DNA of 64,000 nt, taken from an uncultured Chloroflexia bacterium. GTDB taxonomy: Bacteria; Chloroflexota; Limnocylindria; Limnocylindrales; CSP1-4. The DNA lies in assembly GCA_963707215.1 (NCBI GenBank), contig CAVPPB010000003.1:160001-224000 (forward strand). Reading direction: 5' to 3'. Positions 8,945-27,853 of the stretch are shown one piece after another. Position numbers and translations under genes: made by a program. Under the pieces are notes generated by a model. That model ran no database searches. It was not told where the DNA came from and saw nothing but the letters and a program-made list of their open reading frames with translations. How positions within the stretch are numbered: position 1 is the stretch's first letter; every line of letters starts with the position of its first letter.

Positions 8945-10689
8945 CCTGCCGCCACGAGCCGCTCGCCGCGCCACCCCTCGGCCCGGTCGAGCAGCTCCCG
9001 GGCGCTCGCCCGGGCGGCCTCGCCGCCCGTCGAGCCGGCGAGCATGTGGGCGAGTTCCTCCGTCCGGGCATCGCCGACCAGCGTCCGGACCGTCGTCGAG
9101 GTGCGGCCGCCACGCTCGATCTTCTCGATCCGCAGGTGCGTGTCGGCATACGCCGCGATCTGCGCCAGGTGGGTCACGCAGAGGACCTGGTGGCGCCGGC
9201 CGAGGGCCCACAGGGCGCGTCCGACGGGCTCGGCGCTGCGCCCGCCGATGCCGCTGTCGATCTCGTCGAACACCAGGGTCGGCGTGTCGTCCAGTCCGGC
9301 GAGGACCTCGCGGATCGCCAGAGCCACGCGCGAGAGCTCGCCGCCGGACGCGATCCGGGCCAGCGGCCGGGCCGGCTCACCCGGGTTGGGGGCGAAGCGG
9401 AAGACGACTTCGTCCACGCCGGTCTCGTCGAAGGCCACCGCGTCGCCGCCGAGCTCCACGGCCGGTTCGTTCGGCCCGGCGATCCGACGGCCCAGGCCGA
9501 CCGAGAAGGCGTCGCTGGGGAAGTCGAGGGGCTGGAGGGTCCGACCGACCGCCTCCGCCAGACCCTCGGCCGCCCGGGCCCGCCGTGCGGAGAGCTCGGC
9601 CGCGGCCGTCGCCACGTCCTTCAGCAGGGTCGCCTCGAGCTCGCTGCGACGGGCCCGCTCGGCATCCAGCCCCTTCAGGCGCTCGACCTCGGATCGGCAC
9701 TGCTCGCCATGGGCGATCACGGTCGCCTCGTCGTCGCCATAGCGGCGCTCCAGGGCGTAGATGAGCGACAGGCGCTCCTCCAGTCGAGCCAGCTCGGCTG
9801 GATCGTGGTCGACGACCTCGGCCAGCGCGCGCGCCTCCTCGGCAGCGTCCTCGAGCTCGGCGGCGAGCCCACCCAGGCGCTCGGCGAGCGGAGCGAACCG
9901 CGGATCGAGACGGGCGACCCGCTCGGCCGTCGTCGCTGCCGTGGCCGTCCCATCGCGGGCGCCGCCAGGATCCCCGAGCAAGGTCTCCCGGATCTCCCCC
10001 ACAGCGCGGATCGTGGTCTCGGCGTGTCGGACCGCTGCCAGGCGTCCCTCGATCTCGGTCGCCTCCCCGGGGCGCAGCCGGGCCGCCTCGATCTCCCGAG
10101 CCTCGTGGTCGAGGACCTCCAGCCGTCGGGCGAATTCGCGGGCGTCGGCGGGGAGTCCGGCCAGGACCTCGCGGTTCTGACGCCAGGCCTCGACGGCCAC
10201 GGCCACGGCGGCCCGGTCCCCCTGGTGCTCCCCGAACGCATCGAGGAGGTCGCGCTGGTGGCGATCGTCGAGGAGTCGCTGCTGATCGTGCTGACCGTGG
10301 ATGTCCACGAATTGGCCGACCGTGTCGGCCAGGCGGCCGGCCGTCACGGCCTCGTCGCCGAGCCGAGCCGACGATCGGCCCGCGGCGCTGACTTCGCGGA
10401 CCACGGTCAGATGACCATCGGGTCGCTCGAAGCGGGCCTCGACCCGGGCACCGGGTGCCCCGTGGCGCACGAGGCCCGTGTCCGCCCGGGCACCGAGGAC
10501 CAGGCCCAAGGCATCGATGAGCAGGCTCTTGCCGGCACCGGTCTCGCCGCTCAGGACGATCAGGCCCGCCGAGAGGTCGACGCGGACCCGCTCGAGGAGA
10601 GCGAGACCTTCGACGGCGAGCGAAGCCAGGCTGCCGGAGCCGACCGCGTCCCGGCCTGCCGGATCCTGCCGCTCGGCACCGGCGGTCAC
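8941..10689 (-). CDS. recN: DNA repair protein RecN
   Basis: GETGAGKS, IASGGELSR, FDEIDSGIGG, CVTHLAQIAA. Confidence 0.95.
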   Translation of the reverse strand: MTAGAERQDPAGRDAVGSGSLASLAVEGLALLERVRVDLSAGLIVLSGETGAGKSLLIDALGLVLGARADTGLVRHGAPGARVEARFERPDGHLTVVREVSAAGRSSARLGDEAVTAGRLADTVGQFVDIHGQHDQQRLLDDRHQRDLLDAFGEHQGDRAAVAVAVEAWRQNREVLAGLPADAREFARRLEVLDHEAREIEAARLRPGEATEIEGRLAAVRHAETTIRAVGEIRETLLGDPGGARDGTATAATTAERVARLDPRFAPLAERLGGLAAELEDAAEEARALAEVVDHDPAELARLEERLSLIYALERRYGDDEATVIAHGEQCRSEVERLKGLDAERARRSELEATLLKDVATAAAELSARRARAAEGLAEAVGRTLQPLDFPSDAFSVGLGRRIAGPNEPAVELGGDAVAFDETGVDEVVFRFAPNPGEPARPLARIASGGELSRVALAIREVLAGLDDTPTLVFDEIDSGIGGRSAEPVGRALWALGRRHQVLCVTHLAQIAAYADTHLRIEKIERGGRTSTTVRTLVGDARTEELAHMLAGSTGGEAARASARELLDRAEGWRGERLVAAG

Positions 10690-11531
10690 CGGGGCAGCAG
10701 CTCGACCTTCTCGCGGAGCAGGTCCCAGAAGGGCAGGGCCCCTTCCGGCTCGAGCAGCCGGATGGGCCGCTCGAGCGCCCGGACCTCGACCACGTCGCCG
10801 ACCTCCAGGCTCCGGTCCTGCCAGCCATCGACCGACACGAGGGCCTCATGGGCAGCGACGACGAGGCAGCGGACGACCTGGTCGGGGCTCACGACCACCG
10901 CCCGCAGCGTCGAGAGGTAGGCCGCGATCGGGGTCACGATCAGATTCCGGCTCAGCGGGTCGAGGATCGGGCCGCCGGCCGAGAACGAGTAGCCGGTCGA
11001 TCCCGTCGGCGAGGAGACGACCAGGCCGTCGGCGATGAAGGCGGCCAGGTGGCTCTGGTCGATGGCGACCTCCAGATGGCAGACACGGGCCAGCGAGCCC
11101 CGGGCCACCACGACGTCGTTGAGGGCGACCGTCGGCGGCGTTCCGTCGGGTCGGCCTCCGGGCAGGACGGACGCCTGGAGGAGCATCCGCTCCTCGACCC
11201 GATAGCGACCCTCGTGGAGATGCTCGAAGATCGGCTCCAGGCGATGCCCCTCGGCCTTGGACAGGAAGCCGACCTTGCCGAGGTTGACGCCCAGGATCGG
11301 GACGTCCACGGCCGCGACCGAGGTGGCCGCCCGCAGGAACGTCCCGTCGCCGCCGAGGACCACGAGGACGTCGGAGCCGGGCAGCGCCTCGACGAGGGCC
11401 GGCGTCTCGACCGCCGGCGCCCACCACGTTTCGATCGCGTGCGCCTCGCACCAGGCGGTCGCCCTGCCGAGGAGCTCCAGAGCCGCTGGCTTCGTGGGAT
11501 TGACGGCGAACCCGATCCGACTGAGGGTCAT
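10686..11531 (-). CDS. nadK: NAD kinase
   Basis: LGGDGTFL, LNDVV, DGLVVSSPTGSTGYSFSAGGP. Confidence 0.95.
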   Translation of the reverse strand: MTLSRIGFAVNPTKPAALELLGRATAWCEAHAIETWWAPAVETPALVEALPGSDVLVVLGGDGTFLRAATSVAAVDVPILGVNLGKVGFLSKAEGHRLEPIFEHLHEGRYRVEERMLLQASVLPGGRPDGTPPTVALNDVVVARGSLARVCHLEVAIDQSHLAAFIADGLVVSSPTGSTGYSFSAGGPILDPLSRNLIVTPIAAYLSTLRAVVVSPDQVVRCLVVAAHEALVSVDGWQDRSLEVGDVVEVRALERPIRLLEPEGALPFWDLLREKVELLPR

Positions 11532-19008: not shown

Positions 19009-20235
19009 TCAGGCCGGGAGGGCGATCACGTCGCGAGGGAACCGGGTGAGCAGGTCGACGCGTCGGGCGCCGCTGTCGACGTGGACGAGGTCCTCGATCC
19101 GGACCCCCGTCCGACCGCCGAGGTAGACGCCCGGCTCGACCGAGAAGACCGTCGGGCTCGGGAGCGGGGTCTCCTGCGCCACCCGCGAGAGGCTCGGCGC
19201 CTCGTGCGTGGCCAGGCCGATCCCGTGGCCGGTCCCGTGGCCGAACCGCTGGCCGTGTCCTGCGGCCGCGATGATCTCGCGAGCGGCCGCGTCGACCGCT
19301 CGGCCCGAGGGCAGCACCCCCTCGCCGACCGACCGCTCCAGCAACCCGATGGCGGCGGCCTGGGCCCGGGCGACCAGGTCGTAGAGCCCGAGATCGCGCA
19401 CCGCGGGCTCGCCGAGGAAGAGGGTCCGAGTCATATCGCTGCGGTAGCCGGCCACCTGCGCGCCGAAGTCGAAGAGCATGACCCGACCGGACCGGAGCCG
19501 CCGAGGGCCCGGCGAGCCGTGCGGAAGGGCGGCCTGTGACCCCGCCAGCGCGGCGACGTCGAAGGCCAGGGCCTCGGCCCCCTGCTCGCGCATGAGGATC
19601 TCGAGACGCCAGGCCAGCTCGCGCTCGGTGGTTCCGACGCGGACGTGCGGCAGCAGCGCCGCCAGGGCTCGATCCGCAACGGACGCGGCAGCCGCGATCC
19701 GCTCCACCTCGGGCGCTTCCTTGACGGCCCTGGCGTCGTCCACCCAGCGGCCGGCCGGGACGAGCTCCACGTCCGGTGCGGCCGCCGCCAGCGCCTCGTA
19801 CAGCCCATGGCTGATGTCGCCGACGGGCACGGCGACCCGCCTGGCCCCGATGGTGCCGACGAGCTCCGGCCAGCTGGCCGGCAGGTCGTACGTCACGGCC
19901 TCCACGCGCGAGCCGGGCGATTCGCGACGGCACTGCAGGGTGTACCTCGTGTCGGCCAGGACGACCACCTCGTCCATCGAGACGAGGAACCGACCCGAGT
20001 GACCCGCGACCTTCTCCTCCCCGTCGCCCAGGACGACGCCGGTGAGGTAGCGGATCTCCTCGCGACGGAGCCCGAAGTAGGCGTCGACCCCGGCCTCGGC
20101 CAACTGCTCGCGCAGGCCGGCCAGCCGCCGTGGACGTGCCTCGCGGTCGGCCTCGGCCCACTGCCGGATCCGGCGAGCCGTCGGCGGGGCTGCGAAGTCG
20201 GCCGGGACGGGCAACCGCCGAGGAGCGCGGCCCAT
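19009..20235 (-). CDS. pepP: Xaa-Pro aminopeptidase (M24)
   Basis: ALPHG, FDFGA..GYRSDMTRT, HGTGHGIGLATHE, SVEPGVY, GVRIED. Confidence 0.9.
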   Translation of the reverse strand: MGRAPRRLPVPADFAAPPTARRIRQWAEADREARPRRLAGLREQLAEAGVDAYFGLRREEIRYLTGVVLGDGEEKVAGHSGRFLVSMDEVVVLADTRYTLQCRRESPGSRVEAVTYDLPASWPELVGTIGARRVAVPVGDISHGLYEALAAAAPDVELVPAGRWVDDARAVKEAPEVERIAAAASVADRALAALLPHVRVGTTERELAWRLEILMREQGAEALAFDVAALAGSQAALPHGSPGPRRLRSGRVMLFDFGAQVAGYRSDMTRTLFLGEPAVRDLGLYDLVARAQAAAIGLLERSVGEGVLPSGRAVDAAAREIIAAAGHGQRFGHGTGHGIGLATHEAPSLSRVAQETPLPSPTVFSVEPGVYLGGRTGVRIEDLVHVDSGARRVDLLTRFPRDVIALPA

Positions 20236-20238
20236 CAG

Positions 20239-20266
20239 AGGTAGCCGTACAGTTGCACGGTAAGCA
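20239..20266. repeat. Left att junction: 12-bp core plus arm ACGGTAAGCA
   Basis: Core identical to 26508-26519; arm 20257-20266 is 9/10 inverted to 26494-26503. Confidence 0.85.
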
Positions 20267-20337
20267 ACACTACCGCGACGGCTCGTGATGAAGGGTTGCC
20301 TCGATCGTGCGCACGGCGCGATGGTAGCGCGGGGGAC

Positions 20338-20371
20338 GGCCCCCGGTCGCCCGCCGCTCCGCTGGCCTGCC
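20338..20371 (+). repeat. Degenerate copy (R0) of the array repeat
   Basis: ggcccccggtcgcccgccgctccgctggcctgcc resembles the consensus. Confidence 0.5.
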
Positions 20372-20391
20372 GGAGCCGGGCAGGATGGGGG

Positions 20392-20991
20392 TCAGTCGCT
20401 CGAGCAGTGGATCCTTCGCTGCCACGCGCGCTCCCGTCGCTCGTGCTCAGCGTGTTCTGCGGCCGGGGTGTAGACGCGCACCTCGACGGTCGGGCCGACG
20501 AGGACGGAGAGCGCCGTCCGTGTCCGCCGCGACTCGCTGATCCACAGGACCACGCCGACCGTCGGACGCGGGTCGGATCGCCGGACGCGCTCGGCATCGG
20601 ACTCGATCAGGTATCCGGCTTGTTTCACTCCGTCCGCGCTCGTGACGACGATGCCGTCGGGGTCCTCGACCAGGACGATCCGCCGCCCGAGCGCGAACGC
20701 GTCGGCCTGCGCGTCGGGGAGGAGGTCGGTCACCCGTAGCAACTTGGCCCCGGCGGCGAGGAACTCGTCGGGGTAGCCACGGTCGCCCCACGTGAGCATC
20801 TTCCCGTCCGTAGGGTCTGAGAGCGTCACGCCAGAGGTTCGCTCTCGCCCTTCGCTGTAGTTCCAGAAGAGGTGCGCCGGCATGGTCACCGACCCGACGG
20901 TCACCTCGGCGAGCTGATCGTCTCGTCCGGTCGCGCCCTGCTCGAACGGGACCGTGGTGCTACCTCCGAAGAGGTTGCGAAGGAAGCCCAT
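20392..20991 (-). CDS. Hypothetical protein (array unit 1, 199 aa)
   Basis: GGAGGA RBS before ATG; MGFLRNLFGG N-terminus. Confidence 0.7.
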   Translation of the reverse strand: MGFLRNLFGGSTTVPFEQGATGRDDQLAEVTVGSVTMPAHLFWNYSEGRERTSGVTLSDPTDGKMLTWGDRGYPDEFLAAGAKLLRVTDLLPDAQADAFALGRRIVLVEDPDGIVVTSADGVKQAGYLIESDAERVRRSDPRPTVGVVLWISESRRTRTALSVLVGPTVEVRVYTPAAEHAEHERRERAWQRRIHCSSD

Positions 20992-21056
20992 CTTCCATGT
21001 CCTCCGGCTGGACCTCGGACCAGCGTACTGCGCCCGCCGGGGATGAGGACCGAAAC

Positions 21057-21088
21057 GGCCCCCGTCGCCCGGCCGTGGGCTGGTCGCC
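21057..21088 (+). repeat. Array repeat R1
   Basis: GGCCCCCGTCGCCCGGCCGTGGGCTGGTCGCC. Confidence 0.95.
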
Positions 21089-21164
21089 TCCCCCTGGGCG
21101 AGAACGCGCCGACGGGCCGAGGAACGGATCTGCAACGCCCTCCCATCTCAGGCGTCACCTATGC

Positions 21165-21560
21165 ATGGTCGAGAGTCTCCGCGCTCAGCTCCGACGGCAC
21201 ATCTACGTCACTGCCGCGCTCATCGGGCCGCCCGCGATCTTCATCGGGTTCCTGGCCGCCATCCTCGGCTGGGCGTTGTTCCCCGACGTGGGCTGGGTCC
21301 GCCTCGACGAGGATGGAGACGAGATCCCCCTACTCCACATCGCGATCTTCTCGGTCGTCTGGATCTTCGCCCTTTACCTGCTGAGCGCCGCGGTTCTCGG
21401 GAAGCGCATCAGCCTGATGGTCAGCGAGGAGCACCGGGCCTACGCCCCGCCAGGGTCCTTCCCCCGACGGCCGCGGGGCAACGGCTACTGGATGGTCGCG
21501 GCCGGCTCGGGCATCGCCGTGTTCTTCATCGTGGCTGCGGCCATGGGATGGCTCACCTAG
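21165..21560 (+). CDS. Hypothetical membrane protein, ~3 TM (array unit 2)
   Basis: Three hydrophobic segments; stop codon 6 nt before R2. Confidence 0.7.
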   Translation: MVESLRAQLRRHIYVTAALIGPPAIFIGFLAAILGWALFPDVGWVRLDEDGDEIPLLHIAIFSVVWIFALYLLSAAVLGKRISLMVSEEHRAYAPPGSFPRRPRGNGYWMVAAGSGIAVFFIVAAAMGWLT

Positions 21561-21566
21561 CAGGCC

Positions 21567-21598
21567 GGCCCCCGTCGCCCGGCCGTGGGCTGGTCGCC
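21567..21598 (+). repeat. Array repeat R2
   Basis: Identical 32-mer to R1; similarity continues about 30 bp downstream. Confidence 0.95.
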
Positions 21599-21706
21599 TT
21601 CCCCCTGAGCGGCGAGATCGCGCCGGCCGGCCCGGAGCGGGCGATCTCCGCCGGCTCCGCGGACTACGCCGACTGGCTCGCCTGTCCGGAGTGCGTCACC
21701 TACCGC

Positions 21707-22240
21707 TCAACACTTGGTTTCCTGGTTGGCATGCAGCCGCAGCCGCGCCCGTCTGCTCGCCGCGTACGCGGTCAGGGCGACGAACGCAAGGAGGCACGCG
21801 ACCGCGTACATCAACCCCTGCGCCGCGGGCGTCTCCGGCGCGACCGCCGTGTCCGGGAGTGCGGACACCGTGACGTCCACGGCGCCGGCGCAATCGGCTC
21901 CCGGGACGCTCGCCGTCACCGTCCAAGCGCCCTCCTGGTTCCCCCAAAAAGCATGCACGAAGAGGAAGTCTCCCGCCGCGTCCGCGATCCCCGGCGAGAA
22001 GTCGCCGAACGGGACTCCGTTCCACGTGAAGGTCAGGTCGATCTGCGCGCCGGGCACGAACGAGCCCCAGAACGTGATCTCTTCTAGCTCCACAGTAATG
22101 CTCGTGCTGCCCTCGTCGCCGGGGGCCGGGTCGATCGCAGCGCGGAGCACGCAGTCGCCCGGTGCCGCGGCGACGGGCGGCGCGGCCGCGAGCGTGACCG
22201 CAAGGAGTACAGCGGCAAACGAAACCGAGATGCACCGCAC
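21707..22240 (-). CDS. Secreted protein with LPxTA-type C-terminal sorting signal (array unit 3)
   Basis: Signal peptide FAAVLLAVTLAAA; LPDTA + TM + RRARLR tail; GGGAGG RBS before GTG. Confidence 0.7.
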   Translation of the reverse strand: MRCISVSFAAVLLAVTLAAAPPVAAAPGDCVLRAAIDPAPGDEGSTSITVELEEITFWGSFVPGAQIDLTFTWNGVPFGDFSPGIADAAGDFLFVHAFWGNQEGAWTVTASVPGADCAGAVDVTVSALPDTAVAPETPAAQGLMYAVACLLAFVALTAYAASRRARLRLHANQETKC

Positions 22241-22398
22241 AGCAGGACCCTCCCGGGACGCCGCATGCGGGTCGGGTCCGCCAGTGGCTCGACACGGTCC
22301 TAGGCAGCCAGGGTTGGGACCGGGTCTCATCGCCCCCCGCGATGGCGCGGACGATGCGGCCGGCTGCACCGGCAGTCAAGATGCGTCGGTCATCGAAC

Positions 22399-22430
22399 GG
22401 CCCCCGTCGCCCGGCCGCGGGCTGGTCGCC
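22399..22430 (+). repeat. Array repeat R3
   Basis: 31/32 identical to R1. Confidence 0.95.
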
Positions 22431-22475
22431 TTTCCCGCTGCAACGCCTCGCTGCCTGTGACGTCAACCTCTTGAG

Positions 22476-22910
22476 ATGAGATCGCAGGGGATCGGCCCGC
22501 TCACGGACAGCGGTGACGGCGACCGCTGGACGACGGCGGTCGGCGCGGCGCGGGCCTTCGTCATCGGTTCGGTCGGGACGGCGGTCGCCGTAGCCGGCTG
22601 GGTGGCGCTCGTCCAGCTTCCAGCCCTCATCGAGAGCCTCGGCGCGCTGGTGTTCTTCGGCCTGCCGCCCCTGCTGGCCGCCATGGTCGGGGCAGCCACC
22701 GCCCGGTGGGGCGACCGGACGATGGAGGCCGCGATCGCCGGTGCCCTCGGCGGCTGGCTCACCTGTGCCGCCCTTCCGCATGCGCTGACCCTCGTCGGTG
22801 GCCGGGTCGATCCGGTCTTCTACCCCTACTGGCTCATGGCCGCCGGCACGGCCGGGCTCCTCGCCTACGGCGTCGGGTTCGCCGCCGGGTGGTGGTTCTC
22901 GGAGCGCTAG
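22476..22910 (+). CDS. Hypothetical membrane protein, ~4 TM (array unit 4)
   Basis: Hydrophobic ORF; stop codon 2 nt before R4. Confidence 0.7.
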   Translation: MRSQGIGPLTDSGDGDRWTTAVGAARAFVIGSVGTAVAVAGWVALVQLPALIESLGALVFFGLPPLLAAMVGAATARWGDRTMEAAIAGALGGWLTCAALPHALTLVGGRVDPVFYPYWLMAAGTAGLLAYGVGFAAGWWFSER

Positions 22911-22912
22911 AC

Positions 22913-22944
22913 GGCCCCCGTCGCCCGGCCGTGGGCTGGTCGCC
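22913..22944 (+). repeat. Array repeat R4
   Basis: Identical 32-mer to R1. Confidence 0.95.
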
Positions 22945-22992
22945 CGTAACGCTTCGCCGCCCATGGCGCCCTGGTCACGGGAGGACCGGCCG

Positions 22993-23265
22993 GTGGAGAG
23001 CCGGAATCTCCTCGTGGCCCTCGGCATCTTGCTCGGGGTCGCGATCGGGGCGTTCGTGATGGCGAACCGGTCACGTTCTCGCAGCCCGGGCAGCAGGGGC
23101 CAGCCTGTTGGAGTCGGCTGCCTCTGGGCCCCGGTCCTCGGAGCTCTGTCGCTCGCCGGCGGCTGCAGCGTCCTGGTCGTCAGCGTTGCTCCCCTCGAGA
23201 TGACGTCACGCCGACGGAGATGCTGCGCTCCCGTCACCCGGAACCCCAGGTCGGGTCGTGGCTAG
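22993..23265 (+). CDS. Small hypothetical membrane protein, 2 TM (array unit 5a)
   Basis: GGAGG RBS, GTG start, LLVALGILLGVAIGAFVM and a second hydrophobic stretch. Confidence 0.5.
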   Translation: MESRNLLVALGILLGVAIGAFVMANRSRSRSPGSRGQPVGVGCLWAPVLGALSLAGGCSVLVVSVAPLEMTSRRRRCCAPVTRNPRSGRG

Positions 23266-24113
23266 CGGGGTGCGACGACCGGCTCGAGCGACTCGAGCAT
23301 CGACTCGATCGAGGCGGCGACCTCGCGATCAGCTTCGTCGACGTAGGCGGTGATGAACAGGATGTCACCGGCGCCGAGCACCGGGTCCGGAACGCCGATG
23401 ACGGCGCACCAGGTCGCCTCGATCCGGCGGGGATCGCTTGGTCGATCGGCTGATCGCCCCGGCTGGCCCGGGGCGGGCTCGATGACCGCGACCCAGCGGG
23501 CGCGGACCGCCGGACCGAATGGCAGCTCGACGCGGTCGGCGACCGACGCTTCCAGGCCGGTCGCCCTGAAGCCGGGGTAGTCGGTCGCGACGGACCCTTC
23601 GGAGTCGAGGTCCTCCTCCACGAGGGCGAGGATCTCCTCGGCCGTCGCCGGCGCTCCCCAGGAACCGACGTTGACCCGGAGCATCGCGTCAACGCGGTCG
23701 TCGGTCGAGGGGAACCAGGCCAGGAACGCGGCCGGGAACGCGTCGCCGGACGTGGAGGCGATCCACAGCTCGTGCGCGGCCGGATGCGGCTGGAGACCGC
23801 CGAAGCCCGGATGCTCCTCGAGCATCCGCAGCATCGCCGCCTCGTATCCGGGACCGCTGCTGGCGCCATGCCAGCCATCGGGCAGGTCCATCCTGAACGG
23901 AAGGCCCGCGAATGGATCCGGTGTCGGCGGGCCGGCCCGGGTCGTCGTGGGGGCCGGCGTCGGTCTCGGCGTCGATCCAGCCGAGGACGTCGCCACCGAT
24001 CCGGACCCGGGTGTCGCTCCTGGCGCAAGCGTGGGGGTGGTCCCGCATCCGGCCACCAGGAGCGAGCCGAGAGCCAGCGGCGGTAGCGATCGCAGGACCC
24101 GCTTCACGACCAT
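23262..24113 (-). CDS. Hypothetical lipoprotein with Pro/Thr-rich linker (array unit 5b)
   Basis: Lipobox LVAG-C after a basic/hydrophobic N-terminus; PTPAPTTT linker. Confidence 0.75.
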   Translation of the reverse strand: MVVKRVLRSLPPLALGSLLVAGCGTTPTLAPGATPGSGSVATSSAGSTPRPTPAPTTTRAGPPTPDPFAGLPFRMDLPDGWHGASSGPGYEAAMLRMLEEHPGFGGLQPHPAAHELWIASTSGDAFPAAFLAWFPSTDDRVDAMLRVNVGSWGAPATAEEILALVEEDLDSEGSVATDYPGFRATGLEASVADRVELPFGPAVRARWVAVIEPAPGQPGRSADRPSDPRRIEATWCAVIGVPDPVLGAGDILFITAYVDEADREVAASIESMLESLEPVVAPR

Positions 24114-24187
24114 ATCAGTGCCCCCGCGCTATGGCGGTCAGGGTGCCGGTCGTGGAACGGACGGGTCTAGAGGCCGAGGGCCTGAAC

Positions 24188-24219
24188 GGACGCGGGGCCA
24201 CGGCAGCGGGCTGACCGCC
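24188..24219 (+). repeat. Degenerate copy of the array repeat
   Basis: 22/32 identical to R3 without gaps; same GAAC before and TTCCCG after. Confidence 0.6.
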
Positions 24220-24323
24220 TTCCCGTCCAGATCCCTGCTGCGACATGTACTACGACAGCCTCTGCGGGGCTACGATGGCCCCGACGCGCGGCGACCCCTC
24301 GGTAGGCACCTGGAGGGCGAACG

Positions 24324-25691
24324 ATGGCAGCGAACCGCTCCGCTCAGGAGCGCCCGGAGGCGCGCTGGCAACGGGCGAGGCTCATCCCGGCGGTCGGCAT
24401 CAAGGGCGATGTCGAGCAGGAGCTGCGTGCGACCTCGGCACTCCTGGCCGTGATGGTCGCGGTGCCGGACTTCGGACGTGAGATCGTGGCTCGCGTCGGA
24501 GCACCGGGAGGCCGGATCTCCACCTTCACCGAAGTTCGCTTCGATCGCGATGACGGCAAGACACTCCGTCCGGACGGGGCCATCCTCGTTGAGCGGGGCA
24601 GCACCCGGTGGACCTGCCTCGTCGAAGTCAAGACTGGGAAGAACGAGTTGCAGACGGCCCAGATCGAGGCGTATCTCGATCTGGCCCGGGCTCACGCCTT
24701 CGACGCCGTCCTGACGATCTCGAACAGCATCGCCTCCGACTCGACCGAGCTGCCCGTGGCGATCGACCAGCGCCGTGCCCGGGGCTTGAAGATCCGTCAC
24801 CTCTCGTGGTGGCGCATCCTCACCACCGCGATCGTCGAGAAGGAGCACCGCGGGATCGACGACCCCGACCAGGCGTGGATCCTGGGCGAGTTGATCCGCT
24901 ATCTCCAGGACGAACGATCGGGTGCGTCGGGCTTCGAGGAGATGGGGCCCAACTGGGTTGCCATTCGCGACGGAGCCATGCGCCAGACGCTCCGCCAGAG
25001 TGACCCGGCGGTGCGGGACATCGCCGACCGGTGGGAGCAGTTCATCGAGTACGTCAGCCTCGATCTCAGGCAGACGCTGGGACGACCAGTCGTGCCGCTC
25101 TGGGCTCGGAAGAGCACCCGCGCCACGCGACTTCAGGAAGCGACGCGGAGTCTCGTCCAGGACGGCACGCTCAGGGGCTCCATCAAGGTCCCGGACACGG
25201 CGGCCCCGCTGGACTTGGAGGCCAATCTGCGGACGCAGCGCCTGACCACGAGCGCCGAGATCGCGGCACCACGGGAGGGTCGGGCGCAGACGCGCATCAA
25301 CTGGATGCTCCGACAGGCGAAGGAGATGCCCGCCGATCTCCGTGTCGAGGTGCGTTACGTCAATGCGCGAGAGCACCCCGCGATGTTGCTCGGGAGCGCC
25401 ATCGACCGGCCTGAGCGGCTCCTGTATGGACCCGACCCGAAGCGGGAACCTCGGTCCTTCCAGCTGGCCCTGACGAAACCGCTCGGCCGGAAGGGCGGGA
25501 AGGGCTCCGGCTCGTTCCTTGGCGACTCGCGCGAGCAACTCTTGTTGTTCTATCGCGAGGTGCTGCAGCAGGTCCGCGCCTGGCAGCCACCTGCGCCGCG
25601 CCTGCCCGAAGCCGCCAAGGCTCCGGATTCCGCGGACTCGGGTCTTCCGAGCGGGGCACCGACCGACGTGGACCCGCTCGCAGGGGACTAA
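24324..25691 (+). CDS. Putative PD-(D/E)XK nuclease-domain protein (array unit 6, 455 aa)
   Basis: TEV.F...RPDGAI...LVEVKTG...QIEAY restriction-endonuclease-like motif. Confidence 0.7.
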   Translation: MAANRSAQERPEARWQRARLIPAVGIKGDVEQELRATSALLAVMVAVPDFGREIVARVGAPGGRISTFTEVRFDRDDGKTLRPDGAILVERGSTRWTCLVEVKTGKNELQTAQIEAYLDLARAHAFDAVLTISNSIASDSTELPVAIDQRRARGLKIRHLSWWRILTTAIVEKEHRGIDDPDQAWILGELIRYLQDERSGASGFEEMGPNWVAIRDGAMRQTLRQSDPAVRDIADRWEQFIEYVSLDLRQTLGRPVVPLWARKSTRATRLQEATRSLVQDGTLRGSIKVPDTAAPLDLEANLRTQRLTTSAEIAAPREGRAQTRINWMLRQAKEMPADLRVEVRYVNAREHPAMLLGSAIDRPERLLYGPDPKREPRSFQLALTKPLGRKGGKGSGSFLGDSREQLLLFYREVLQQVRAWQPPAPRLPEAAKAPDSADSGLPSGAPTDVDPLAGD

Positions 25692-25700
25692 GTCTTCCGT

Positions 25701-25724
25701 CCCTCCGTCGCCCGGGCCTGGGCT
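25701..25724 (+). repeat. Partial degenerate repeat copy after nuclease stop
   Basis: ccctccgtcgcccgggcctgggct. Confidence 0.45.
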
Positions 25725-25769
25725 CCGACTGGCCCGGGAAGCTGGCGCTCGGCGCATTGAGCCCAAACT

Positions 25770-25802
25770 GGCCCCCGTCGCCCCGGCCGTGGGCTGGTCG
25801 CC
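25770..25802 (+). repeat. Array repeat R5
   Basis: Consensus with one extra C; followed by TCCCCCTGGACGAGATCGC as in R1/R2. Confidence 0.93.
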
Positions 25803-25888
25803 TCCCCCTGGACGAGATCGCTATCCGGCCACGGAGCCGGGGGCGAGCGACACCCTAGGTGGCGCGGCTCACCGCAGACTTACCAGCC

Positions 25889-26113
25889 ATGCGTCGCCGC
25901 GATCTCGAGCGCCTCCTTCTCGCCGGTCGAGCGGCCCACCTCCCCCGGCTCGTCGATGCTGGATACGCCCCAGGAGCCGCCGAGAAGGCGATGGTGGCGT
26001 GGGAGGCCAGGGCCGACGCCGAGGGCCGAGAGCGCGGCGAGGGGGCGTTCTGGGACGGCATCGAGGCGTGGGCAGCGGAGCAGCGGCCCTGGCGGCGGGA
26101 TGTCCCGCATTGA
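25889..26113 (+). CDS. Small hypothetical protein (74 aa)
   Basis: ORF MRRRDLERLLL...FWDGIEAW; CAGACT hexamer 8 nt upstream of ATG. Confidence 0.55.
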   Translation: MRRRDLERLLLAGRAAHLPRLVDAGYAPGAAEKAMVAWEARADAEGRERGEGAFWDGIEAWAAEQRPWRRDVPH

Positions 26114-26145
26114 CGGCCGCGCCCGACCGGTCCTAGCGTGCAACC

Positions 26146-26280
26146 GTGACCACTCGGCGGAAGACACTCACGGTCCTGCTCGTCGCCCTGCTGGTGGTCG
26201 TTGCCGCCCTCGCGCTGTACGTCGGGGTCCAGGTGTGGCAGATCCTCGAGATGCACTCGGGCGGCATCCCGAGGTTGTAG
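26146..26280 (+). CDS. Single-TM micropeptide (44 aa)
   Basis: MTTRRKTLTVLLVALLVVVAALALYVGVQVW...; TAGCGT hexamer 6 nt upstream. Confidence 0.5.
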   Translation: MTTRRKTLTVLLVALLVVVAALALYVGVQVWQILEMHSGGIPRL

Positions 26281-26384
26281 CCGGCTTTGGTGCGGTCCTG
26301 ACCGTCGTCTTGGTCGTCGGCTTCGTCATGGCTGGCGATCCCTTCCCCGTGCCGGACGTCCGGTCGGGGTCAGGGGGTGGGTAG

Positions 26385-26513
26385 ATGAAGCGTTGGCTCG
26401 TGGTGGTCGGGTTGGTCGTGCTTGTAGCCGTGGTCGTGGTCGTGGTTTGGCCTGTCGTGTTTCCGCCAGGCGGGAGGATGGTCGGGTGTGAACTGCTAAC
26501 CGTCTATAGGTAG
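26385..26513 (+). CDS. Single-TM micropeptide (42 aa) ending in the att core
   Basis: MKRWLVVVGLVVLVAVVVVVVWPVVF... Confidence 0.4.
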   Translation: MKRWLVVVGLVVLVAVVVVVVWPVVFPPGGRMVGCELLTVYR

Positions 26514-26519
26514 CCGTAC
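26494..26519. repeat. Right att junction: arm TGCTAACCGT plus 12-bp core
   Basis: Core 26508-26519 identical to 20239-20250; overlaps mltG stop. Confidence 0.85.
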
Positions 26520-27853
26520 TTGCGGAGCTTCTCCTCGTGCTCGGCCAGCGACTTCGAGAAGTCGTGAGCCCCCCCACCGTCGGGGATGGCCACGAAGTAG
26601 ACGTAGCCGTCGTCCTGGTCCGGCGCCAGCGAGGCGTCGATGGAGGCAGCCGTCGGCGACACGATCGGTCCGGGGATGAGCCCGCGGACCCGGTAGGTCT
26701 GGTAGCCGGCCAGCTCGGGAGGGAACTCGACCCCGGCCAGGGGCACGCCGAGGGGCTTCCAGAAGAAGTACTCCTGCCACTGCTCGAACGGCAGCTCGCC
26801 AAGGTTCAGCGTGTCGTTGCCCCAGATCACCGTGGGGTCCGCGTTGAGAAGCGAGCCCGTGTCGAGGCGGTTCTGGTAGACGCCGGCGATGAGCGGGCGC
26901 TCCTCGTCGAGGACCGCCTCTCGCTCCACGATCGAGGCGAGGGTGAGGATCTCGTAGAGGCCGAGGCCGCGCACCTCGGGCACGGCGATCCGATCCGGCC
27001 CGACCTCCTCGTAGAACTCGTCGAGCATCATCCGGACGAGGGCCTCGGCGTCGGTCCGGCCATCGGGATCGGTCCGCAGCCGGTACGTGGACGGGTAGAG
27101 ATAGCCCTCCAGCGTCGCCCCCTCCGGGAGCTCCACCCACGGGTATTCGGCGAGGAGGGCCGGCGGCGGGGCCGTGACGAGGTCGTAGAACGCCTTCGGA
27201 TCGACCCCGGACTCGACCGTCTGGAGCTTGGCCGTCATCTGCTCGAGGCGGATGCCCTCCTTGAAGGTCACATCGGTCGCCGTGACCACGATCCGGTCCT
27301 CCTCGAGCGCGCGCACCACCTCCCGCGGGTCCATGTCCCGGCGGAGGCGGAACGGCCCGGCCTCGAGACGATCGCCCAGCGACGCCTCCCAGGCGGCGTA
27401 ATCGAAGGCCGGCCGCGACAGGATGAGACCGTCCGCGAGCAGCCGGTCACCGACGGTCGTCACCGTGTCGCCGGCTTCGACGACCCAGGCGACCTCGGAC
27501 GGGTCCGACGACGCCGGCGTGGCCAGCTCGTCCGCGAGCGACTCCTCGACGAGCGAGGCGACGAAGGGAAGCCGCCAGGCGCCGGGGTTGTCGATCGCCC
27601 AATCGGCGACGGCCGCGGCGGCGAGGGGCCGGAAGACGGTGACGGCGAGGAACGCCATGACGACGACGATCCCGCCGACGAACAGGAGGAAGCGCAGGAA
27701 GCTCGGCCCGCTACCGCGCCGCGGAGGGCGCCGGCGACCCGGAGCGCCGTTCGGTCGCACCGGCCCGATGCCCGGGTCCACTGTCGGCCCGTTGCCGATC
27801 GGGTGGGCCTGCGACCGACCGCCCCGCGGCGCTCCTCCTCGTCTGACCGTCAT
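26504..27853 (-). CDS. mltG: Endolytic transglycosylase MltG (YceG)
   Basis: TM anchor, LEGYLYPSTY, LTLASIVEREA, IAGVYQNRL, LNADPTV, GLIPGPI. Confidence 0.93.
   Translation of the reverse strand: MTVRRGGAPRGGRSQAHPIGNGPTVDPGIGPVRPNGAPGRRRPPRRGSGPSFLRFLLFVGGIVVVMAFLAVTVFRPLAAAAVADWAIDNPGAWRLPFVASLVEESLADELATPASSDPSEVAWVVEAGDTVTTVGDRLLADGLILSRPAFDYAAWEASLGDRLEAGPFRLRRDMDPREVVRALEEDRIVVTATDVTFKEGIRLEQMTAKLQTVESGVDPKAFYDLVTAPPPALLAEYPWVELPEGATLEGYLYPSTYRLRTDPDGRTDAEALVRMMLDEFYEEVGPDRIAVPEVRGLGLYEILTLASIVEREAVLDEERPLIAGVYQNRLDTGSLLNADPTVIWGNDTLNLGELPFEQWQEYFFWKPLGVPLAGVEFPPELAGYQTYRVRGLIPGPIVSPTAASIDASLAPDQDDGYVYFVAIPDGGGAHDFSKSLAEHEEKLRKYGYL

Follow-up and report, generated by a model that had tools for sequence, protein, structure and literature searches.

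A 6,257-bp islet between mltG and pepP in a Limnocylindria genome, and the rebuilt end of mltG at its border

How can a long piece of DNA settle between two translationally coupled genes without harm to either of them, if the piece itself carries no gene for a recombinase? This question is raised by a locus in a metagenome-assembled genome (MAG) of the Chloroflexota (Limnocylindria), which amounts to 3.26 Mb in 5 contigs and is 84.8% complete, and of which a stretch of 64,000 nt, here called the window, was analysed. On its minus strand lie pepP at 19009-20235, encoding an Xaa-Pro/M24 aminopeptidase (PF00557, E 1.8e-51; PF01321, E 1.2e-14), and mltG at 26504-27853, encoding an MltG/YceG-like lytic transglycosylase (PF02618, E 1.7e-59). 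Between them an islet body of 6,257 bp (20251-26507) is bordered by a short direct repeat. Within the window the repeated 12-mer, AGGTAGCCGTAC, has two plus-strand matches and no more, one spanning 20239-20250 and the other 26508-26519 (6,269 bp from start to start), against a chance expectation of 0.00 (mean of 100 dinucleotide-preserving shuffles); the repeat noticed in the sequence-only reading is thereby confirmed. In the whole genome there are three exact copies, namely those at both flanks of the islet and one at position 661513 of contig C3, which looks to be in the 3′ end of a 16S rRNA gene. If a 2-nt indel is allowed, the match of the two flanks becomes longer, with 16 of 18 positions identical, and only 8 of 5000 background segments reach an equal score.

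What the two copies do for the neighbouring genes can be read from the minus strand. The right copy encodes the functional Y-G-Y of MltG and the first two bases of its Leu codon, while the last four bases of mltG (26504-26507, the last Leu base and the TAG stop) are islet DNA; the gene thus reads Y-G-Y-L(CTA)-TAG and the protein ends in KYGYL. The left copy is part of an orphan mltG end, Y-G-Y-L(CTC)-TGA at 20235-20250 on the minus strand, whose TGA overlaps the ATG of pepP as TGATG (at 20235), that is, a coupled junction of ancestral type. Therefore the C-terminus of MltG is unaltered, with CTC replaced by CTA in the Leu codon and TGA by TAG as the stop. Both junctions read as had been claimed from the letters alone, and they support the accompanying statement that the element brings a synonymous Leu codon and a new stop and leaves MltG intact.

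An insertion should have an empty counterpart, and a comparison with relatives had been proposed for this reason. Such sites are common: of 71 informative genomes that belong to other genera of the family, 65 lack the islet and have mltG abutting pepP, with the start of pepP no more than about 90 nt from the mltG stop, and in many relatives the two genes overlap as GTGA, ATGA or TGATG, like the orphan junction of the window. These empty sites bear out the view that the DNA was inserted between mltG and pepP and that its removal restores a coupled junction. Seven of the 72 informative genomes, when that of the window is counted, have no directly abutting pepP; four of these, including that of the window, keep pepP downstream of an insert, and in the other three pepP was not found nearby. 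The inserts are diverse. G436 carries 1.56 kb flanked by a 23-nt repeat (20 of 23 identical), whose start falls on the same base as that of the window's repeat, and this insert bears a c-di-GMP-II-GAG riboswitch (61.6 bits). G470 has about 458 nt at the junction; the insert of G014, about 870 nt, gives a riboswitch match below threshold (36.3 bits). In the sister species, G001, the junction is occupied by a 3.97-kb insert that includes genes for TetR and ABC transporter proteins, and no DNA match and no common cargo was found between this insert and that of the window. The arms of the islet next to the repeat show no significant likeness to those in G436, since equal scores are reached by 4513 and 3774 out of 5000 random pairs. 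The junction is thus a recurrent landing site in the family, with different inserts in G436, G470, G014 and G001.

By what enzyme was the DNA brought in? Integrative elements with tyrosine or serine integrases insert in the 3′ end of tRNA genes or protein-coding genes and rebuild that end. The islet resembles them in that its DNA rebuilds the target end, a short block of identity is duplicated and relatives keep an empty site, but the integrase gene that defines such elements is absent from it. Six-frame searches of the genome gave no match to PF00589, PF00239 or PF07508 within 20251-26507, and no integrase, transposase or serine recombinase was found among the islet ORFs, which match nothing in Pfam, NCBIfam, PADLOC or PHROGs. 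The only tyrosine recombinase of non-Xer type found in the host genome, 85% complete, is frameshifted and lies beside a tRNA-Lys gene. The same holds more widely, as only XerC/XerD-like tyrosine recombinases and broken fragments were found in the host genome, G001, G436 and G014 (MAGs of 85-92% completeness). Among papers on mltG together with attB, none treats mltG as an integration site as far as titles and the beginnings of abstracts tell. Public sequencing runs, none of which covered more than 0.10 of the sampled words, returned neither a joint from 20238 to 26508 nor a joint of a circle. The site-specific integration proposed in the sequence-only reading stays plausible, with its 12-bp repeat, rebuilt end and empty site, but no recombinase gene was found in the insert.

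On the reading that we consider best, with a probability of roughly 0.5, the DNA came in by att-type (Campbell) integration, the recombinase either acted in trans or was lost afterwards, and a CIME-like islet was left behind. A circular DNA would have recombined once, in the Campbell manner, at a 12-bp stretch of identity within mltG's last codons, and the 6,257-bp islet would thus have come to lie between two copies of the 12-mer. MltG would have stayed unchanged because the copy on the mltG side together with four islet bases restores the Leu codon and the TAG stop. The copy on the pepP side would be the original mltG end, still overlapping the pepP ATG; therefore pepP would now be uncoupled from mltG and placed behind the first islet gene (20392-20994, minus strand), which is on the same strand and directly upstream, so that its transcription may have changed. 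As the recombinase would have acted in trans or been lost, the islet would now be a CIME-like, att-flanked block of cargo, with genes for small envelope proteins, riboswitch-controlled and others, and for a probable nuclease. CIMEs (cis-mobilizable elements) derive from decayed ICEs or IMEs, can be mobilised by accretion with an incoming element, and are described in streptococci as keeping att sites while integration and transfer genes are lost (PMC5704250). Likewise, the islet keeps repeats of attL/attR type and has no integration and transfer genes; it differs in that neither a parent ICE or IME nor a matching integrase is known, in its host, a Limnocylindria MAG of the Chloroflexota, and in its cargo of riboswitch-led envelope genes. 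Whatever the enzyme, the locus is a clean example, dated by comparison, of DNA inserted between two translationally coupled genes with neither harmed, the overlap of the coupled genes being duplicated or rebuilt on insertion, and it marks the mltG end of an uncultured soil and freshwater lineage as a landing site that can be used again.

Is a dedicated recombinase needed at all? Host recombination across the short repeat might suffice, if it excises the islet and a circle with a copy of the conserved mltG end re-inserts in a new host by Campbell insertion at short homology. We hold this to be unlikely. An intact non-Xer recombinase is missing from all four insert-bearing genomes searched, and between genera the DNA sequence of the mltG end is highly conserved. 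Furthermore, repeat length varies by event, 12 nt in the window and 23 nt in G436, and at islets beside tRNA genes in the host genome the repeats run on into imperfectly matching flanks, after 44 nt at tRNA-Gly and 34 nt at tRNA-Pro. On the other hand, for recombination of the RecA type a 12-bp repeat is very short, and the common start base of the repeats in the window and in G436 points to a defined position of cleavage. The missing enzyme also tells less than it seems, since the MAGs are incomplete and a recombinase could have come on a transient phage or plasmid.

The interior of the islet gives another view of its past. A genus-specific 34-nt repeat, which is in its long form an imperfect hairpin of 85 nt with two paired boxes, lies in six intergenic gaps of the islet; six copies belong to the main family and one is degenerate, all have the same orientation between successive genes, and most retain the left 34 nt only. 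On the plus strand are copy A (21055-21105, with the 34-nt core at 21055-21088), copy B in the long form (21563-21660), copy C (22397-22447), copy D (22911-22961), which starts right after a stop codon, and, within 25702-25864, a degenerate F′ (25702-25724) followed by the long-form copy F (about 25767-25864). A degenerate copy E (24186-24236) is joined to a promoter-leader module of riboswitch cassettes (24114-24236, in minus-strand sense), the aptamer of which is broken off after about 18 nt and followed by the repeat; this module is multi-copy, with at least 15 copies in the sister species. An unbroken aptamer of c-di-GMP-II type (Rfam clan CL00127) is found at 22260-22346 on the minus strand, upstream of the third islet gene on the same strand, with 53.3 bits for the GCG variant model RF03170 (gathering cut-off 47.9; E 8.8e-8) and 47.3 bits for RF03169 at 22262-22346. 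Islets of the same modules are found elsewhere in the genome, several of them adjoining tRNA genes, and the one at tRNA-Gly, which likewise has no integrase, lies between perfect 44-nt repeats of the 3′ half of the tRNA. The islet is thus a mosaic, one of a genus-specific family of islets that share the 34-nt/85-nt repeat and c-di-GMP-II riboswitch modules; neither this family nor the repeatedly struck mltG-pepP junction was part of the sequence-only reading. In islets without an integrase, cassettes of riboswitch-led envelope genes move together with a repeat specific to the genus; how accessory genes are moved where a genome seemingly possesses only XerC and XerD thereby becomes a testable question. 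Tycheposon-type islands of marine cyanobacteria are likewise cargo arrays at tRNA genes with repeats of part of the target and with many cargo-only remnants. Those features are shared by the islets described here, but no tycheposon-type recombinase was seen and the lineage is unrelated.

Such mosaicism, with modules common to several islets, would also be expected if mltG and pepP were parted long ago in this genus and the space between them was refilled. A small duplication or insertion in an ancestor would then have opened the junction, cassettes would have been swapped later by recombination at riboswitch modules and at the 34-nt repeats, and the 6.3 kb would not be one discrete insertion. 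The sister species too has an insert, and the first ~10 nt beside mltG, in a blastn alignment past the mltG stop, are alike in both species; for this likeness an older common insertion with later turnover of cargo fits equally well as repeated integration. On contig C270 of the sister species a block of riboswitch plus repeat directly abuts the block of the multi-copy segment that lies at 25880-26167 in the window, where 3.4 kb separate the two, and a decayed orphan mltG end may be present (8 of 9 positions). This orphan is however not significant, as 423 of 5000 background segments score equally, that of the window is perfect (12 of 12) and keeps the ancestral TGATG overlap, and the two inserts share no cargo. 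We thus regard the refilled gap as improbable. Equally improbable, in our estimate, is a bolder proposal, that Limnocylindrales have an undescribed cassette system with units of promoter, c-di-GMP-II riboswitch and envelope gene, in which the conserved 34-nt site (85-nt hairpin) between units would be an attC-like recombination site; the units would gather into arrays at tRNA genes and at the mltG-pepP junction and would be moved by XerCD or some other enzyme and not by a cassette-borne integrase.

Known integrons offer a related model. Integrons and CALINs are recognised by an IntI-type integrase or by two or more attC sites with R''/L''-L'/R' boxes. CALINs are integron cassette arrays without an integrase, and the islet could be one of them if the 85-nt hairpin repeats were attC-like sites at which single-gene cassettes are added. 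Its unrelated small genes are indeed parted by repeats in the same orientation, the long form is an imperfect hairpin of attC-like size, and arrays of the same repeat elsewhere in the genome include one adjoining a broken integrase. This integrase, the only one nearby, is however phage-type, tRNA-adjacent and frameshifted, and no IntI was found; most copies are half-sites, the hairpin has no covariation support (covariation term +1.24), genes lie on both strands with leaders of their own, at least one of them a riboswitch, and the 12-bp flanking repeat would be left unexplained. A CALIN is thus very unlikely.

A non-autonomous transposon with the 12-mer as target-site duplication has still slimmer prospects. 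It would account for the direct repeat at the flanks, and a 10-nt imperfect inverted repeat (9 of 10) is present 6 and 4 nt inside the ends. However, this inverted repeat is equalled in score by 181 of 3000 random 25-nt pairs, the end sequences of the islet are nowhere else in the genome, and none of the ORFs tested matches a transposase. Target-site duplications of 12 and 23 bp are moreover unusually long, and they should be equal in size. A chimeric join at a short repeat, conceivable because the genome is a MAG, can hardly be believed: an assembler would not be misled by as little as 12 bp, both junctions are biologically sensible, with an intact MltG end and an ancestral overlap, and analogous inserts are found in four independent assemblies.

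If att-type integration brought the islet in, what was the cargo? Gene 1, next to pepP, encodes a soluble protein of about 200 aa with codon-position GC of 0.70/0.55/0.84 and an uncertain start codon; a search of the ESM Atlas gives a mere lead to HIRAN clusters (score 0.88-0.89). Gene 2 (21165-21560, plus strand; about 131 aa) is a predicted membrane protein, judged by eye from hydrophobic segments. Gene 3 (21707-22240, minus strand; about 177 aa), downstream of the riboswitch, probably starts with the GTG at 22240 and appears by eye to have a signal peptide and a C-terminal hydrophobic anchor. Gene 4 (22476-22910, plus strand), a membrane protein of 144 aa, is in a block with a paralogue at 103793-104427 of contig C1 (77% over 651 nt), and repeat copy D follows its stop. 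A small membrane ORF of 102 aa at 22957-23265 (plus strand), part of an ORF at 22798-23265, is uncertain, with Pfam matches at the level of noise. Gene 5 (23262-24113, minus strand; 283 aa) is a probable lipoprotein by an L-V-A-G-C lipobox recognised by eye; no close relative was found in the genome_contigs collection, and the nearest ESM Atlas clusters (score 0.92-0.95) are unnamed or actinobacterial lipoprotein families. The multi-copy segment at 25880-26167 on the minus strand, "gene 7", has at least six further locations in the genome and may be a small ORF; substitutions of 15/9/14 by codon position are not codon-like. At the right border an ORF for 42 hydrophobic residues (26385-26513, plus strand) runs convergent with mltG, and its TAG stop is inside the right 12-mer. 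Gene 6 (24324-25691, plus strand; 455 aa) is a probable PD-(D/E)xK nuclease-like protein: D84, E101 and K103 are invariant in all six aligned sequences, and the best PDB matches that Foldseek gives for its AF2 model (pLDDT 75.6) are restriction endonucleases at E 2.5e-3 to 8e-3, none reaching 1e-3. Its homologues occur in 8 of 401 genomes sampled across the phylum, with a gene for an SLFN-g3/DUF2075 helicase nearby in three of five loci examined, and one is encoded on an IMG/VR contig, where it adjoins capsid and terminase genes.

The islet (20251-26507, 6,257 bp) separates two host genes of the minus strand, mltG (YceG/MltG, 26504-27853; PF02618, E 1.7e-59) and pepP, which encodes an M24 Xaa-Pro aminopeptidase (19009-20235; PF00557, E 1.8e-51). 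At the right junction the C-terminal end of MltG reads K-Y-G-Y-L(CTA)-TAG, and at the left junction Y-G-Y-L(CTC)-TGA is read from the minus strand, the TGA overlapping the ATG of pepP. A 12-mer, AGGTAGCCGTAC, has exactly two matches in the window, at 20239-20250 and 26508-26519, with 0.00 expected from 100 shuffles. The sequence-only reading had described these junctions, and its 12-mer positions, both gene ends and the TGA/ATG overlap were all correct when re-read. The repeat grows to 16 of 18 positions with one 2-nt indel, and an equal alignment to the mltG end is found in only 8 of 5000 background segments. Across the 3.26-Mb assembly of the window's own genome the 12-mer occurs three times; the third copy, on contig C3 at 661513, is ~290 nt off a tRNA-Ile/tRNA-Ala pair and, because of this proximity, presumably lies in the conserved 3′ end of the 16S rRNA gene. 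This third copy was taken as a coincidence.

Is there an empty site, with mltG directly abutting pepP, in relatives, as had been anticipated from the sequence? The mltG end was inspected in 72 genomes of the same family that belong to other genera (10 loci, then 28 loci, of which six genomes overlap the first set, then 40 further stretches), and one of them, G457, is uninformative because its locus stops at a contig end. The empty site was found in 65 of the 71 remaining genomes, in which the pepP start is at most about 90 nt from the mltG stop, as extrapolated from tblastn coordinates. Where the junctions of relatives were read, they typically show a GTGA, ATGA or TGATG overlap, and thus the orphan junction of the window is of the ancestral type. 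There are six exceptions. Three genomes have gaps between mltG and pepP, of ~870 nt (G014), ~1,560 nt (G436) and ~458 nt (G470), all of them tblastn extrapolations, and in the other three (G433, G438 and G464) pepP was not found within 14 kb of mltG; G433 has a second mltG-like match elsewhere in its genome. It is to be noted that all these genomes are metagenome-assembled and 85-97% complete, so that absence of a gene means that it was not found. That an insertion took place between mltG and pepP is practically certain.

The same junction is occupied in other genomes as well. In G001, the only other species of the genus, pepP is 3.97 kb from mltG, and the insert carries genes for TetR, an ABC ATPase and an FtsX-type permease arranged as an operon (15982-19761 of L025, which is its contig C77). 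This insert has no DNA similarity to that of the window, and the 12-mer is present in G001 as a single copy. A 68%-identical copy of the operon is located in the window's own genome (contig C1, 327761-330779). The clearest parallel to the islet is the insert of G436, which is bounded by a 23-nt direct repeat (20/23 identical) spanning the final codons and stop of mltG as well as the GTG start of pepP; this repeat begins at the position where the window's 12-mer begins. The insert is a single cassette, in which a c-di-GMP-II-GAG riboswitch (61.6 bits) precedes a gene whose product is repeat-rich and has a Tat signal. Similarity between the arms of the window's islet and those of the G436 insert is not significant in an unanchored alignment, and 10 of 17 positions, counted by eye, match when the arms are anchored at the repeat. 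The G014 insert has an opposite-strand ORF for a small secreted protein and a sub-threshold match to the c-di-GMP-II-GAG model (36.3 bits; gathering score 40), and that of G470 has one small ORF on the opposite strand and, by eye, an apparent decayed copy of the mltG end immediately before the pepP start. Candidate decayed orphan copies in G001 and G014 were equalled in 423 and 1427 of 5000 background segments, respectively, and are not significant. In the four genomes having an insert without full duplication (the window's own, G001, G014 and G470), the TAG stop of mltG comes from the first bases of the insert. In G014 and G470, two genomes of different genera with otherwise unrelated inserts, the 9 nt past this TAG agree at 8 of 9 positions; those of the window's genome align with G001 with one gap, and with G014 or G470 only weakly (5/9).

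Islets sharing modules with that of the window are also found beside the tRNA-Leu, tRNA-Asn, tRNA-Gly, tRNA-Lys and two tRNA-Pro genes of the same genome. The islet at tRNA-Gly(ccc) (C1:717584-722424, 4.8 kb) has the same modules as the window islet, and its boundaries carry a perfect 44-nt repeat corresponding to the 3′ half of the tRNA, with ~45 nt of imperfect flank. The one at tRNA-Pro(tgg) (C3:1299042-1300720) has a 34-nt repeat, 94% identical, which comprises the tRNA 5′ half and its upstream flank; the 5′ half is the less usual side for elements targeting tRNA genes. At the tRNA-Leu, -Asn, -Lys, -Pro(ggg) and -Cys islets, searches for a repeat of the tRNA 3′ end gave only matches of up to 16 nt, with E 0.066 or weaker. 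No recombinase was found in the tRNA-Gly and tRNA-Pro(tgg) islets, and six-frame genome searches located no tyrosine recombinase, resolvase or large serine recombinase inside 20251-26507. The sole non-Xer tyrosine recombinase found in this genome is of phage type and is frameshifted twice, so that it runs through three frames; it lies at C3:399873-401256 (9873-11256 of the C3 stretch L021), between a six-copy array of the intergenic repeat described below (C3:394-398 kb) and tRNA-Lys. The other two matches are XerD-like beside recN and XerC-like beside topA. Among the other insert-bearing genomes, G436 and G014 have two tyrosine-recombinase matches each, and G001 has two and a 24.6-bit fragment.

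The short perfect repeat, the rebuilt target end and the orphan end at the far side together form the pattern expected when a circle enters the chromosome by one reciprocal crossover. In this reading, the crossover would have been catalysed by a recombinase absent, or no longer present, in the islet. Of the earlier proposal of site-specific integration at the mltG end, the insertion stands, and att-type integration by such a recombinase is given a probability of about 0.5. It is favored over random illegitimate insertion because the same junction is used in several genera, because in the window's genome and in G436 the repeat has the same starting position, and because the sibling islets in tRNA genes have long tRNA repeats. 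Since the mltG stop overlaps the pepP start, only insertions which duplicate or rebuild the overlap would be expected to survive, and such a selective filter alone would enrich events of this appearance. The strongest alternative, which we consider unlikely, is that host recombination across the conserved mltG-end sequence moves the islet with no need of a recombinase; integrases are absent in all four insert-bearing MAGs and the repeats vary in length, both of which fit movement of this sort. Another, which seems more doubtful, supposes a gap long present in the genus, with its content swapped at the repeats. A lower likelihood is assigned to transposition, an integron-like array or an assembly artefact.

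Direct traces of the att-type reaction were sought in public data. Only six read runs matched, each containing at most 0.10 of the words sampled, and contigs of four of them (at least 88% alike) gave fragments of the repeated modules and no attB or attP joint, so that they are uninformative. A metagenome scan with the 29-nt mltG end returned one low-GC JGI contig of 1.6 kb (L026, exact match at 698-726), in which neither mltG nor pepP is present. The 18-nt islet ends had 16 and 3 matches in a genome-contig collection of 596 Gb, all in unrelated taxa and with similarity extending no wider; by a rough estimate, these numbers are near chance expectation. Terminal inverted repeats of the islet were considered and are not significant.

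MltG is left unchanged by the insertion, and translational coupling of pepP to mltG has presumably been lost. Islet gene 1 now precedes pepP by 156 nt in the same orientation, so that pepP is probably expressed from islet promoters; a simple scan gave no promoter-like site and one terminator-like site against 1.2 expected. The islet belongs to a known kind, that of genomic islets flanked by att sites and seated in a gene's 3′ end. The target appears to be new; of the papers that mention mltG and attB in a full-text search, none is, judged by title and opening of the abstract, on integration at mltG. The islet is unusual in that recombinases are entirely absent, that a junction of coupled genes has been used repeatedly, and that riboswitch cassettes in many copies and a hairpin repeat specific to the genus accompany it. 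So far, this is not enough to make it a different mechanism, and it is improbable that the islet belongs to a new cassette system.

The core of this repeat, CCCCGTCGCCCGGCCGTGGGCTGGTCGCC, lies in six intergenic gaps of the islet: between genes 1 and 2, 2 and 3, and 3 and 4, after gene 4, between genes 5 and 6, and after gene 6. The six copies of the main family (starts 21055, 21565, 22397, 22911, 24186 and 25769) are all on the plus strand irrespective of gene orientation, those at 24186 and 25769 being only 63% alike to the reference copy, and a degenerate copy at 25702 is grouped in a separate family. Some copies form an imperfect hairpin of ~85 nt, and in most the left 34 nt stand alone. 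When 12 long-form copies from the two species of the genus were aligned, RNAalifold gave a consistent hairpin with a covariation term of +1.24, that is, with no covariation support, and single-sequence folds have z-scores of -1.5 to +1.0. Rfam has no family for the repeat. With up to three mismatches the core has 15 matches in the window's genome, and a reversed control pattern has none. Clusters outside the window are at C1:101-108 kb, C1:257-259 kb, C3:394-398 kb and C3:1266 kb, and orientation is always uniform inside a cluster. The repeat is specific to the genus: the window's genome has 15 copies and G001 has 11, and a search of 39 further relatives found none.

Many copies are followed on the opposite strand by a conserved leader of ~55 nt and then by a c-di-GMP-II aptamer. 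In the window, a c-di-GMP-II-type aptamer (22260-22346, minus strand; RF03170, 53.3 bits against a gathering score of 47.9) lies directly upstream of gene 3, which encodes a small secreted or anchored protein. The sister model RF03169 has 20 matches in this genome, 17 of them above the cut-off and many within islets. To our knowledge, no ligand is yet agreed upon for the GCG/GAG variant models. An engineered variant is the topic of PMC13715770. The leader of gene 5 (24114-24195) is this same leader-aptamer module with the aptamer truncated; G001 has at least 15 copies of this module, and cargo genes 1, 2, 3, 5 and 6 were not found there.

The islet genes backed by codon-position GC and translation are gene 1 (20392-20994, minus), gene 2 for a membrane protein (21165-21560, plus), gene 3 for a protein with a signal peptide and a C-terminal anchor (21707-22240, minus), gene 4 for a membrane protein (22476-22910, plus), the lipoprotein-like gene 5 (23262-24113, minus) and gene 6 (24324-25691, plus), where membrane, signal-peptide and lipobox assignments were judged by eye. 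The islet ORFs tested have no match in Pfam, NCBIfam, PADLOC or PHROGs. Gene 1 was considered as HIRAN, for which the sole lead is ESM Atlas clusters (score 0.89); Pfam does not support it even at E <= 10. For gene 5, no close relative was found in the genome-contig collection. Gene 6 is read as a probable mobile nuclease or defence gene. D84...E101-x-K103 is invariant in 6/6 aligned homologues, and the best PDB neighbours of its AF2 model (pLDDT 75.6) are the restriction endonucleases EcoT38I, MspJI, PaqCI and AspBHI, at only E 2.5e-3 to 8e-3. Its distribution is patchy (8 of 401 sampled genomes of the phylum, including the window's own), and one homologue is on an IMG/VR contig beside capsid, terminase and WhiB genes. 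In three of the five loci fetched, these three being from another family of the class, an SLFN-group-3/DUF2075 helicase gene is near the homologue, overlapping or adjacent in L058 (7621-10925) and L060 and ~3 kb off in L057. These helicases have weak PADLOC matches to PDC-S41, Nhi and AbiO, and the two genes may form a defence pair. Further small ORFs in the islet are uncertain. One strongly hydrophobic ORF of 42 aa (26385-26513, plus) has its TAG stop inside the right repeat copy, opposite the mltG stop region, and the region 26000-26600 shows a marked G and T skew.
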